Shown in pieces: positions 28,240 through 32,757 of a DNA stretch of 64,000 nt. Source of the DNA: an uncultured cyanobacterium (GTDB taxonomy: Bacteria; Cyanobacteriota; Cyanobacteriia; Cyanobacteriales; CAWCAG01); assembly GCA_963793425.1 (NCBI GenBank), contig CAWCAG010000005.1:320001-384000 (forward strand). Reading direction: 5' to 3'. The translations under genes and the position numbers were made by a program. Position 1 is the first letter of the stretch; each line of letters opens with the position of its first letter. The notes beneath the pieces were generated by a model. It did not search any database and had not been told where the DNA came from. It saw only the letters and a list, made by a program, of their open reading frames with translations.

Positions 28240-29571
28240 TTACTCCTGCCATCCTCGCATTTTACCAGGATTAAGTAACCCAAAAGGATCAGCTAATTTT
28301 TTGAAATTTAGTTGTTGATTATCTATAGTCTTTTTACCACCATCTTCCAAAATATAGGTATGGGGATTAGCGATAAATACTCCTTGATTTTCGTGGTAAG
28401 TAATAATTTCTTGTAAGCGCTCTTCTGTTGTATAACGGACTAATTGTAGCCCTCCTGCTACCCCTCTACCTTGGGAGCGCATAAATTCTAGATGAATCAT
28501 AACTTCTTCACCGAAATGTTCGTACATTTGCTCCACTGATTTTAGTTGAGGATCGTAGGGAAAAACACTCTGTAAATAGGTTAAATCATGATCAGCACTA
28601 CGACCATGAAGAGTGGTATGATTCCAAGTGAATTCTGCTAAGCTGGTTCCTTTTTTCGCTTCTGTAGCAGATTTTTGATAGGTAATTTCTCCATGATATT
28701 CTGCTACTAAACTTTGTAAAGGTTCTAAACAGCTTTCGGCCACCATTAATAAGGCACAGTGTTCCCCATTAGGAAGATAATCTTGCAAAGGGGTAAAGTA
28801 GTTAGGAATTGGTGAAGCATGGATACTAATTAACTTTTTAATTAAACCATCTGCATCTGTCAAGGCCTGCCCAAACTTAGCTGCATCCATAAAGTTACTA
28901 AAAGTGACAATTATTTCTGCCCAAGGATAAGCTAAAGCAAGGGGAATTTCTAATTGAGTAATGATGCCATTTGTACCATAAGCGTGGTTGATTTTTTGAA
29001 CTTCATCTCCTCGTAGCTCTAAAATTCGTGGCTCCTTTTCTAAAGTAACCACCTTAACTGCCAAAACATTGCCGCGATCGCTTAATCCTCCATAATTAAC
29101 TGAACCAATTCCCCCACTACCACCACCAATAAACCCCCCAATCGTTGCTGTACGATAAGTAGATGGGTACATTCGCAACTCCCAACCAATCTCCCTTGCT
29201 TGCTTATCAAATGCCGCCAGTCGCACCCCTGGTTCAACCCAAGCAACTCCTGGTTTAAGGTCAACTATTTTGTTCATTTTCGTAGTATCAAGAACAACTC
29301 CTCCTTGCAAAGGAACACACTGTCCATAATTTCCTGTACCTGCTCCTCTTACAGTTAAAGGAACTCGATATTTGACACAAACTTTGGCTATTTGTATAAC
29401 TTCTTTTTCATTACTAGGACGTACTACGACATCTCCTCTTTTATCTTCTAACAGAGGTTGTAATACGGGGCTAAAATGATAGTAATCTAAAGAAAGTTTG
29501 GCAACGCTATCAGGTTCAGTAATAGTTTCAATGCCATCAAGTTCAGTAGTAAATTTATCCCAGTTAGTCAT
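28240..29571 (-). CDS. FAD-binding oxidoreductase (VAO/GlcD-like)
   Basis: 'RGAGTGNYG', 'ATIGG', C-terminal 'DPFGLLNPGK'. Confidence 0.92.
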   Translation of the reverse strand: MTNWDKFTTELDGIETITEPDSVAKLSLDYYHFSPVLQPLLEDKRGDVVVRPSNEKEVIQIAKVCVKYRVPLTVRGAGTGNYGQCVPLQGGVVLDTTKMNKIVDLKPGVAWVEPGVRLAAFDKQAREIGWELRMYPSTYRTATIGGFIGGGSGGIGSVNYGGLSDRGNVLAVKVVTLEKEPRILELRGDEVQKINHAYGTNGIITQLEIPLALAYPWAEIIVTFSNFMDAAKFGQALTDADGLIKKLISIHASPIPNYFTPLQDYLPNGEHCALLMVAESCLEPLQSLVAEYHGEITYQKSATEAKKGTSLAEFTWNHTTLHGRSADHDLTYLQSVFPYDPQLKSVEQMYEHFGEEVMIHLEFMRSQGRGVAGGLQLVRYTTEERLQEIITYHENQGVFIANPHTYILEDGGKKTIDNQQLNFKKLADPFGLLNPGKMRGWQE

Positions 29572-30310
29572 AAAAAAGTAACTTTAAATTTTGTGCTTAA
29601 TTATCTTGGCACTAATGTTAAACTACAAATAGTAAGAAGCGCTAATTTGGAGTTTAAGGCTATGGCTTCTCCCTTTCCAGGAATGGATCCTTATCTGGAA
29701 CATCCCAATTTCTGGCCAGAAGTACACAGTCGCTTAATTGTGGCGATCGCTGATGCTTTAGTTCCTCAAGTACGTCCTAAATACAAAGTTGCTATTGAAA
29801 AGCGCATCTACCAAATTACCAGTAACAACGATGATAATTCCTTATTAGTTGGTATTCCTGATGCTGCAGTTACACATCAATCTAATCTATCTAAAATTAA
29901 TGATTCTGATGTCGCAGTTACTTCTGTCAAGACAAAACCCGTCAAAGTTTTCATCCCAATGTTAGAAGAAATTAAACAAGCATATCTAGAAGTTAAGGAT
30001 TTGGCAACAGGCAAAGTAATTACGGCAATTGAAGTTCTTTCTCCGGTTAATAAACGTTCTGGCGAAGGAAGAGAAGCTTACCTCAAAAAGCGTCAGCAAA
30101 TTTTAGGAAGCTTAACTAATTTTGTAGAGATAGATTTGCTGAGAGGATGGCAAGCAATGCCAATCTTAAATAATGATATCAACGTAGATTACAGAGTTTT
30201 AGTTAGTCGTACACAACAGCGTCCTCGTGCTGACTTATATGCTTTCAATCTTCCTGAAGAGCTACCCACTTTTTCTTTGCCTTTATGTTCTGAAGATATA
30301 GAGCCATAAG

Positions 30311-30715
30311 TTATACAGACATTGACCCATGAAGATTAAAGCGAGCATTGATATCAAAATTCGTGAAGAATTGAGTTCTCGTAAAATTGAGTTCGATATT
30401 GATCATACTGGAAGAATCTTGGTACACGAATTTAGAATGGACCTAGCTGCAAAAATGGGTATGGCGTATGTTGCCCCACCCAAATCGGTGCCTGATGGTG
30501 TATTGCCGGAGGTTATTATTTCTGCTCCTTGGGTTTTTTGCGTATTTGTTGTGAATAATCGAGCAGTTATTATTGAGCTAGGAGTGTATGCAATTGAAGG
30601 TGAGATTAAGGACTACTATCACGATAGGCGAGCTGTATAACAAATCGATGCAGTTGTCCCGATATGTGTCTTCACTTCGCATCAGCGCCGCACAGCGGGC
30701 AGCTGATCTCAATCG
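30311..30715 (+). mobile_element. Solitary integron gene cassette (405 bp)
   Basis: Begins G|TTATAC, the exact reverse complement of the inverse core GTATAAC at 30635-30641; contains one ORF plus an attC; ends G|TTGATT. Confidence 0.88.
30329..30640 (+). CDS. Hypothetical cassette-encoded protein (103 aa)
   Basis: ATG 18 nt after the core site; TAA lies inside the attC inverse core. Confidence 0.75.
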   Translation: MKIKASIDIKIREELSSRKIEFDIDHTGRILVHEFRMDLAAKMGMAYVAPPKSVPDGVLPEVIISAPWVFCVFVVNNRAVIIELGVYAIEGEIKDYYHDRRAV

Positions 30716-30721
30716 TTGATT
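30635..30721 (+). other. attC recombination site
   Basis: R'' GTATAAC, 5-nt spacer, GAT(G)CAGTTG(T)CCCG pairing with CGGGCAGCTGATC leaving extra G and T, 6-nt spacer, R' GTTGATT. Confidence 0.88.
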
Positions 30722-30996
30722 TGCAAGTAATATTTAACTAAGTTTATGAGAGGACAGGTTATGATTATCAAATTGATTATACATCTGAAACTTCACCTCC
30801 TTTAACCGATAATTATCAAGCTTGGACAACAAAGATTTGACAACATAGCAATGAAGCGATCTAGATTTTCTCAAATTGCTAAGCTGTGGAATAAAAAACA
30901 TTTTAGTTAACGATAGTCATTATGAGTCAAAATTGGTATGAAATTTGGATTAATGAATCCAACAGAAATTCCTTATGTAATGATAAATAATGATAA

Positions 30997-32757
30997 ATGT
31001 TTAATGAATTAACCACAGATATATTAGTAGTAGGAGGAGGTACAGGGGGAACTGCAGCCGCTATTCAAGCAGCCCGTTGTGGAATTAAAACTGTTTTAGT
31101 TAGTGAGTTTTCTTGGTTGGGAGGAATGCTAACTTCTGCTGGAGTTTGCGCCCCTGATGGTAATGAGTTACTACCTTGGCAAACTGGTTTGTGGGGGGCA
31201 TTTTTAAGAGAATTAAAAGTTAGGCAAAAAGGAGGATTAGCGAATAGCTGGGTAAGTATGTTTAGCTATCATCCTCAAGTGGGGGCGAAAATTTTTGCTG
31301 ATTGGGTAGAAGCATTACCTAATTTACACTGGATTAAAGGGCAGATTCCTTTAGAAGTATTGTGTAAAGAAAACCGTGTTACTGGGATTCGCTTTGCTGA
31401 TTTCCTTATTAAAGCCCAAATAACCCTAGATGGCACAGAATTAGGGGAGCTTCTGGCTTTAGCAAATGTACCATCACGTTGGGGTTGGGAACTACAAAAC
31501 GAATTCAACGAACCAAGCGCCCCTACTTCTGAAAATGAATTAACCAAACGCTATCCTGTTCAATCTCCAACTTGGGTAGTTATGTTACAAGATTATGGGC
31601 AATGTAAGGAAGCACCAGAAATTGAAGCTGAGGAAAAAAACGCTTTTGAGGGGGCTTGGCAAGGCTATGGAGAAGAAAAATTTCTTAACTATGGTCGCTT
31701 ACCTGGTGATCTTTTTATGCTTAACTGGCCTCAATGTGGCAATGACTATGGGGAGAATTTACAACGCCTTATAAAATCAGAGGCAGCGAAAAAAGAATTT
31801 CATCAAGAAGCTATTAACCATAGTCTCAGTTTTGCCCGCTATATCCAAACTCATTTTGGCAAGCGTTACGGTTTAGCCAACGGTATTTTCCCTCACTCCC
31901 TTGGTAATGGTGCTTTGGCACTCCATCCCTATTACCGAGAAAGTCGGCGCTTACTAGGGCTAGAAATCGTCACAGAAAGGGATATTTTACCCATTGAAGG
32001 AGGTTGTGTTGCCCCTTTATCCAAAACCGATAAAGGTAAAGTTAGTTCCATCGCTGTCGGCAACTATGCCAACGATCATCACTATCCTGGTAGAGATTTT
32101 TCCCTTCAACCAAAATCCTTAATCTGGGGGGGAAGATGGACTGGCACACCTTTCACAATCCCTTACCATGCCCTCATACCTGCTTCTACAGAAGGTTTAT
32201 TGGTGTGTGAAAAGAATATCTCCGTTTCTCATATTGCCAACGGTTGTACTCGCTTACAACCTCTAGTTATGAATATAGGACAAGCCGCAGGTATGGCAGC
32301 AGCTTTATGTCTCAAATCAAAATGTCAACCTTGGCAGTTATCTATCAGCAAATTGCAAGAAGCCTTATTAACTGATACCATCGCCCCAGCCGCTATTATT
32401 CCTCTGTTTAACCTATCCCCAAAACACCCAGAATGGTTACAATGGCAGTGTCACTACTTAGAACATCCCGAAACTTATCCTCAAGATGGTAACTGTCCTC
32501 GTGGAGAAAGCAAAACTATATTTAACTCAGACAGAGAAATAGTTTCCGGAATTTTCCAGAAACAAAATCAAGGAGAGTATAGTCTAGAATTTAACAAGCA
32601 TCAGGTGATACTCAAGCAAAAGTTAAGGATAGTTACCCTACATCCAGAAGTTCACCAACAACTATCAAACTATCCTCACCATAAATCTATTTCTCTTTCA
32701 GGGCAGTACAACCCCAGTGGCAACTGGTTCGCAGCCGAGCAACTAATTTTAGATTAG
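30997..32757 (+). CDS. FAD-dependent oxidoreductase
   Basis: 'VVGGGTGG', '[10 protein letters not shown]', 'PYYRESRR', 'GQAAG'; typical neighbour of patX/hetR. Confidence 0.9.

Follow-up and report, generated by a model that had tools for sequence, protein, structure and literature searches.

A lone integron-type gene cassette inserted at a G|TT site of a cyanobacterial DUF4058 gene

A DUF4058 gene in two pieces

The stretch of cyanobacterial DNA considered here (64,000 nucleotides, referred to as the window) carries on its plus strand a host gene of the DUF4058 family that is split into two pieces. The 5' part, with 215 codons, extends from 29662 to 30309 and ends in a TAA codon at 30307 to 30309; in a Pfam profile search, positions 29662 to 30306 matched PF13267 over profile positions 1 to 212 of 254 (E 2.8e-88). 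The 3' remnant lies on the same strand at 30715 to 30842 and corresponds to profile positions 214 to 253 of 254 (30715 to 30839, E 1.8e-8). The match to PF13267 stops at position 212 and restarts at position 214, 405 bp further on, in agreement with the initial annotation, which had placed the break of the DUF4058 frame at 30310 and its resumption 405 bp later and had expected 30715 to 30840 to align with the C terminus of the family. Once the 405 bp are subtracted, the remnant is in frame with the 5' part, and its translation, with one stop codon read through, reads VDLQVIFN*VYERTGYDYQIDYTSETSPPLTDNYQAWTTKI*.

An empty site was sought by comparing the window DNA with 41 related genomes, and it was found, as the initial annotation had expected for an ortholog, in the sister genome G001, which belongs to the same genus. 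The match to this genome runs at 90% identity up to 30311 and resumes at 30715, and the two matches adjoin in G001, so that the alignments break at window positions 30311 and 30715 to 30718. The empty site in G001, GAACCTTTAGTAGATTTACAA, translates as E P L V D L Q, and the sister sequence CCTTTAGTAGATTTA corresponds to the segment in which the window contains 405 additional bases with GTT on either side; at the insertion site itself, the sister carries GTA, whereas the window carries GTT. The sister DUF4058 gene is intact, encodes 259 amino acids, and lies between the same neighbours as in the window, where the genes on either side of DUF4058 are collinear with those of G001 and 89 to 90% identical to them. 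Furthermore, more distant genomes also have uninterrupted DUF4058 genes across the site. The empty site in G001 establishes that the insertion is real and that its borders are exact to the base, apart from a three-base ambiguity due to GTT; thus, a 405-bp insertion in the DUF4058 gene, with exact borders, is shown.

The host gene has decayed in addition to being split. Two in-frame TAA codons are present, one directly before the left junction (30307 to 30309, where the sister has TTA, encoding Leu) and one in the 3' remnant (30739 to 30741, where the sister has CAG), and the comparison with the sister upholds the earlier reading of these two codons as signs of decay. The 5' part is 90% identical to the intact 259-codon gene of the sister and shows a dN/dS of 0.20 in this comparison, which indicates that most of the divergence from the sister accrued under selection, while the 3' remnant retains 93 of 123 nucleotides identical to the sister, compared with about 90% in the flanks. 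The cassette inactivates a host gene here. Further DUF4058 places were observed in the same genome (G000:C7:175057-175348 and G000:C7:740144-740616), and several more occur in relatives; since DUF4058 is multicopy in this genome and in its relatives, the interrupted copy is probably dispensable.

Borders and layout of the inserted cassette

By the integron convention, the inserted gene cassette extends over 405 bp (TTATAC...AATCG) from 30311 to 30715 on the plus strand, and it is absent from the collinear locus of the sister; the boundary is ambiguous by at most three bases owing to the GTT repeat. The GTT at 30310 to 30312 recurs at 30715 to 30717, 405 bp apart. As set by the empty site of the sister, the left G|TT junction (30310 to 30312, plus strand) takes its G from the host and its TT from the cassette, whereas in the right G|TT junction (30715 to 30717, plus strand), the G is the last base of the cassette and the TT comes from the host. 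The target restored from host G 30310 and host TT 30716 to 30717 is GTT, which fits 5'-GWT-3'.

The layout of the insert, with a single open reading frame (ORF), a short 5' leader, and an R'' box overlapping the stop codon, is typical of a cassette. In particular, the left end GTTATACAG (30310 to 30318) and CTGTATAAC (30633 to 30641) form a 9-nt inverted repeat with 100% complementarity, as is expected for a circularised cassette, and the claim that the insert holds one ORF whose TAA lies inside GTATAAC, the reverse complement of the left end, is thereby borne out. The presence of a lone cassette at a G|TT site in the DUF4058 gene is confirmed as an observation on the sequence.

The GC content of the cassette is 0.42, compared with 0.40 for the genome, and the cassette is single copy in its own genome. 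A search with the 405-bp cassette DNA in 401 genomes of the phylum found it in one of them, namely, its own genome. Among sequencing runs, four metagenome DNA runs from one study, and no listed RNA run, contain the stretch; both junctions are spanned in two of these runs, and no joint that skips the cassette occurs in the run contigs, which drop rare variants.

The cassette ORF and its relatives

The only sizeable ORF of the insert (30329 to 30640, plus strand) encodes 103 amino acids and has the same orientation as the host gene. Its ATG lies 19 nt past the host TAA, and its own stop codon TAA falls inside GTATAAC at 30635 to 30641. The product matched no Pfam or NCBIfam family. A HMMER search of 1.84 billion representatives at an E value of ≤1e-3 returned 19 proteins, which comprise a 91-aa variant of the ORF itself, two long repetitive proteins, and 16 small proteins (61 to 112 aa, 31 to 52% identical); most of the homologues come from single short metagenome contigs. 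A word-index protein search with the ORF returned only its own 91-aa variant, a locus search with P0002 in genome contigs gave no match, and a scan of metagenomes for homologues yielded one contig, L052.

The AlphaFold2 model of the ORF product, computed with the alignment from the HMMER search (pLDDT 95.4, pTM 0.86), consists of a long helix followed by a beta sheet. Foldseek found no match in the PDB at an E value of ≤0.001, the best hit of the wide VIA search had a Z score of 3.1, which is in the range of noise, and the hits in the ESM Atlas were all unnamed clusters, none above 0.78. The ORF is a member of a rare family of small proteins without a recognisable fold or function.

In the contigs of two of the four metagenome runs, window position 30602 shows a G-to-T change that turns codon 92 from GAG into TAG, which explains the 91-aa variant in the database. 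We could also observe that several members of the family end near 91 aa and that the last 10 residues of the ORF are modelled with low confidence.

The surroundings of a homologue could be read in two cases. At L050, in a nonphotosynthetic member of the phylum, the homologue lies between housekeeping genes. On the metagenomic, GC-rich contig L052 (364 to 978), a homologue with 39% identity (489 to 770) is flanked by a pair of 67-nt inverted repeats, separated by 481 nt and with 90% complementarity, and it follows directly after the end of an unrelated ORF; this arrangement may represent another type of small carrier for this gene family. The expectation that homologues of the ORF would be found in other cassette arrays did not hold in these contexts, since model R2 (described below) detected no attC site beside either homologue (best score, 9.9 bits), and the family is therefore not tied to integrons by the contexts that are visible.

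A further relative, P0017 (109 aa, partial, from a metagenome-assembled genome), is chimeric: residues 1 to 56 belong to the ORF family, and residues 57 to 109 correspond to a DnaJ-like zinc finger, with up to 87% identity to alphaproteobacterial loci. A scan with P0017 gave 80 loci, all of which matched its DnaJ-like residues (at most 27 to 109) and none of which matched the family part. P0017 may be either an assembly chimera or the product of an insertion into dnaJ.

Anatomy and folding of the attC site

The 87-nt segment at 30635 to 30721 (plus strand) can be read as an attC site, and this length is the usual one among the sites from which our models were built. Its parts, with unpaired bases in square brackets, are the R'' box GTATAAC (30635 to 30641), which mirrors the cassette left end GTTATAC, the L'' box GAT[G]CAG.TG[T]CCCG, a variable loop, the L' box CGGGCAGCTGATC, and a hybrid R' box, GTTGATT (30715 to 30721). 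The spacers are asymmetric, with AAATC (5 nt) on one side and TCAATC (6 nt) on the other. When the '' arm GAT[G]CAGTTG[T]CCCG is set against the ' arm CGGGCAGCTGATC, three L-box pairs come first, followed by position 16, which is unpaired, a stem of six positions, position 23, also unpaired, and then CCCG/CGGG; the stem between the two unpaired bases contains five Watson-Crick pairs and one T.G mismatch. Both the window site and the attC sites of cyanobacterial arrays have AACAA, T[G]CAG, CTGA, and CGTT on the top strand.

In the passages on attC structure of Nivina et al. 2016 (PMC5027507), such sites have an AAC-containing R box, a central spacer that does not pair, and an L box, and, among the unpaired bases of the bottom strand, position 16 is usually G and position 23/24 is a conserved T, with a 6-bp stem between them. 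In cyanobacterial arrays, the attC sites are closely similar to one another, with lengths of about 85 to 88 nt, and constitute a class in which the first unpaired base of the top strand is G and the second is A (26 of 27 source sites in each case). It follows that the bottom strand of this class carries C16 and T23, different from the "usually G" given for position 16 in those passages of PMC5027507. The window site shares with the class the top-strand G at position 16, but its second unpaired base is T instead of A. With G and T unpaired on the top strand, the bottom strand presents C16 and A23, which differ from the usual G16 and the conserved T23/24.

The folding predictions qualify the hairpin proposed in the initial annotation, with unpaired G and T and spacers of 5 and 6 nt. 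This hairpin can be drawn, but it is not the minimum-energy fold, and the G and T belong to the top strand, the bottom strand having C and A. With DNA parameters, the canonical hairpin on the reconstructed bottom strand reached −10.4 kcal/mol under constraint, compared with −12.6 kcal/mol for the minimum-energy fold, i.e., 2.2 kcal/mol above it. In the latter, L' pairs with the loop and not with L'', so that the loop competes with L''. The predicted L-box pair probability of the window site is about 0.01, whereas among the 27 array sites the mean L-box probability of the bottom strand is at least 0.6 in 23 and at most 0.06 in 3. When the integrated site was folded alone, no global hairpin appeared, and the energies were unremarkable (z scores of −0.85 and −0.38). 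We read the site at 30635 to 30721 as a worn or weak attC, which fits a host gene with two stop codons and a genome without an integrase to keep the site under selection.

Covariance models built from cyanobacterial cassette arrays

Integron-integrase genes were identified by matches to NCBIfam TIGR02249 above the curated cutoff, and the DNA upstream of 15 such genes was taken. Six sites were chosen as a seed by a simple structural grammar, on the strand expected for cassette arrays; the window site at 30635 to 30721 also passes this grammar. Model R1 was built from the six aligned seed sites, located beside intI of other cyanobacteria, with the window site left out, and it gave 35 matches at an E value of ≤1 in the loci searched, including duplicates from overlapping loci. 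The 27 nonduplicate R1 matches were realigned to obtain model R2. The source loci of the resulting attC alignment (A3) are L033, L035, L037, L038, L041, L045, L046, L047, and L025. The calibration of the models was shortened, and the E values of R1 and R2 are therefore rough.

The source sites of the models are true cassette arrays. In particular, array L037 has 15 sites on one strand, spaced by 530 to 1,288 bp, and in all 14 intervals the longest ORF is on the strand of the sites, while in array L033, the longest ORF is found on the strand of the sites in 3 of 4 intervals. A different arrangement was observed at L025:412-632 (G293:C24), where two matches to the attC model lie downstream of intI on the same strand, and not upstream and divergent; this may be an "inverted integrase" or a second array.

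When both strands of the 64-kb window were searched at an E value of ≤10, the site at 30635 to 30721 on the plus strand was the only match of either model, over the full model length, with scores of 23 bits for R1 (E 1.2e-3) and 25.3 bits for R2 (E 4.7e-4); the runner-up in the window, with all filters off, scored 11.1 bits. The match starts at R'', and its GTT coincides with the right junction, whose position had been derived from the empty site without recourse to the models. There is no reason why a chance match should end exactly on the junction. Thus, the attC architecture claimed for this segment finds support in models derived from cyanobacterial arrays, which match exactly 30635 to 30721, although the site is weak and atypical. 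Compared with the other sites of its class, it scores 25 bits, against 24.5 to 94 bits for the others, most of which exceed 30 bits, with 55 to 94 bits for the well-kept ones, and under stricter filters it drops out of the R2 results. A search of Rfam at permissive thresholds over 29000 to 32000 returned only four matches, at the level of chance, none of them within the attC site.

Integron integrases and attC sites in the genome and its relatives

In the genome that carries the window (98.6% complete), the best match to TIGR02249 scored 52 bits, compared with a cutoff of 265 bits. Ordinary tyrosine recombinases score at this level, which was also reached in each of the 14 control genomes; moreover, no integrase match at an E value of ≤1e-30 was found in the genome. 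In its 5.28 Mb, the site at 30635 to 30721 was the only R2 match at an E value of ≤1 (E 0.039) among the 150 candidates scored out of about 1,026 from a first look. The statement that no integron lies in the window is sustained by these results, with no intI found in the genome and 30635 to 30721 as the sole attC match in the window.

Within a sample of 401 genomes of the phylum, 22 have intI above the cutoff, and 3 of these 22 belong to the same order as our genome; intact intI genes are located, for example, at G291:C1:3444955-3445896 and G151:C76:1842-2783, and many other genomes contain intI fragments or copies with stop codons. R2 matches at an E value of ≤0.05 were present in 107 of the 151 genomes of the order, often on several contigs, which implies that potential donors are common. 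At least 10 genomes combine attC matches with the lack of an intI match at an E value of ≤1e-30 (G006, G010, G013, G016, G033, G060, G065, G089, G095, and G101), and attC sites outside integrons seem to be frequent in the order. Neither the sister genome, including its collinear locus, nor the other genome of the family that was searched gave an R2 attC match.

The locus, which has a single attC site, lacks an intI, and is bordered by host coding sequence to the left and to the right, corresponds neither to a complete integron nor to a CALIN. As defined in the portion of Loot et al. (10.1101/2022.09.11.507474) dealing with such elements, a SALIN is a single attC site lacking an integron integrase. 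The locus agrees with this definition, as no integrase was found and no further attC match at an E value of ≤1 occurred among the genome candidates scored.

Origin of the insertion

Taken together, the data are very probably explained by an integron cassette that was inserted by IntI at a genomic site other than an att site, i.e., by a recombination between attC and attG that produced a SALIN. According to this model, a circular 405-bp cassette, consisting of a presumably promoterless ORF for 103 amino acids and an 87-nt attC site of the cyanobacterial-integron type, would have been the substrate. IntI would have joined the folded bottom strand of attC, cut at AA|C of the R box, to the double-stranded 5'-G|TT-3' in the DUF4058 gene, and the junction would then have been resolved by replication, so that the attC × attG reaction would have yielded a SALIN. 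The host gene would have been interrupted in frame, the two stop codons would have arisen later, and the attC site would have worn down; the ORF, being co-oriented with the host gene, could be read from the host promoter. We infer that IntI was the catalyst and that the integrase either was foreign or disappeared later; expression of the ORF is likewise an inference. As for the integrase acting in trans that the initial annotation had proposed, this part of the claim fits the absence of intI from the genome, but the same absence also fits an integrase that has been lost or an allele that was imported with the cassette already in place.

The latter history, in which the cassette was inserted in another strain or species and the interrupted DUF4058 allele reached this genome by homologous recombination (for example, by natural transformation), so that IntI never acted in this line, appears unlikely to us. 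It would agree with the lack of intI or of any fragment of it in the genome, with the lack of attC matches in the sister genome and in the other family genome searched, with the abundance of donors suggested by the spread of this attC type in the order (107 of 151 genomes), and with flanks that consist of ordinary host DNA and show about 90% identity to the sister. However, this identity of about 90% holds on both flanks, with no sign of a recombination tract, and the two host stop codons and the worn attC site fit a residence in place equally well. We give very little credit to the view that the occupied state predates the split from the sister, which would have lost the cassette by precise excision by an integrase: the GTA that the sister carries in place of GTT could speak for such an event, but the sister gene is intact over 259 codons, the dN/dS of 0.20 in the 5' part indicates that it has mostly been under selection, more distant genomes also have uninterrupted sites, and this view needs an extra event.

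Three-base-pair direct repeats at both ends of an insert are also left by some transposases. A small, nonintegron mobile element resembling a MITE, with a 3-bp GTT target duplication and a merely coincidental likeness to attC, could account for the direct repeat, and the L052 homologue between its 67-nt, 90% complementary inverted repeats indicates that the family can travel in other small vehicles. Such an element is nevertheless highly improbable here, since there are no terminal inverted repeats from end to end, the only complementarity being that of the left end with R'', 314 nt apart, since no second copy exists in the genome, and since the attC match is full length and ends on the junction. 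A group I or group II intron or an intein was rejected, as the insert encodes an ORF of its own, complete with a stop codon, and matches no RNA family; an IS200/IS605-like element was likewise rejected, in view of the lack of a second copy and of a subterminal hairpin at the left end.

Beyond the insertion of this cassette by IntI, which we consider the preferred reading of the locus, it is possible to advance a more tentative hypothesis, whose probability we rate as rather low. Cassettes of the cyanobacterial type, with C instead of the usual G as the first unpaired base of the recombined strand, might spread widely off integrons and into lineages free of integrases, and the locus described here might then be a natural record, resolved to the base, of an insertion outside an integron by a transient or foreign integrase.

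Comparison with known systems

Resistance cassettes inserted in an IntI-dependent manner at secondary GTT or GWT sites of plasmids, outside attI and attC, were reported in the 1990s. Different from these cases, the present cassette carries a gene with no recognisable function and resides in a chromosome without an integron.

The attC site resembles those of the cyanobacterial arrays (L033, L037, L045, and others) in its length of 87 nt, in the R boxes GTATAAC and GTTATAC, in a spacer that starts with AA, in the L'' and L' patterns xxT[G]CAG and CTGAxx, and in the C that precedes GTT. In contrast to them, it has TTG instead of CGG at stem positions 20 to 22, in addition to T instead of A as the second unpaired base. 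With the classical attC site (59-base element), as treated in the passages of PMC5027507 on attC structure, it shares R'' and R' boxes with AAC and GTT, an asymmetric unpaired spacer, an L box, bases left unpaired at 16 and 23 with a stem of six positions between them, and the location of these bases across the stem from the bottom-strand AAC that is cleaved, while bottom-strand C16 and A23 set it apart from the usual G16 and conserved T23 given there. The type of the attC site points to cyanobacterial donors.

Single attC sites outside integrons are usually software calls. In the portion of Cury 2016 (PMC4889954), by the authors of IntegronFinder, concerned with them, single attC sites were discarded as possible false positives, and Cyanobacteria are noted there as encoding integrons. 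In the present case, by comparison, the insertion is backed by an empty site in the sister genome, and our literature search on the topic found no report of a cyanobacterial case verified in this way.

The closest counterpart is the SALIN described in the relevant portion of Loot et al. (10.1101/2022.09.11.507474), in which the product of the reaction is named SALIN, the target is named attG, with a 5'-GWT-3' consensus cut after G, and 3,400 SALINs are counted in 21,105 complete genomes. Like these elements, the locus consists of one coding sequence and one attC site, the vicinity is free of an integrase and of further att sites, its G|TT fits GWT, a host gene is disrupted, and the cassette is oriented so that the host promoter could read the ORF. 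Compared with the E. coli IntI1 hotspots, the target lacks 5'-CRGM-3' at positions 6 to 9 and has TTGC instead. The SALINs in that portion of 10.1101/2022.09.11.507474 are in silico calls presented with no empty-site comparison, whereas the insertion in the DUF4058 gene is a natural event that can be checked against the empty site of a sister genome, in a cyanobacterial host and with a cyanobacterial type of attC. No new mechanism is revealed by the locus, which represents a known but rarely verified event; it offers a natural example against which the recently proposed attG route can be validated, and this in a phylum whose integrons have been little studied.
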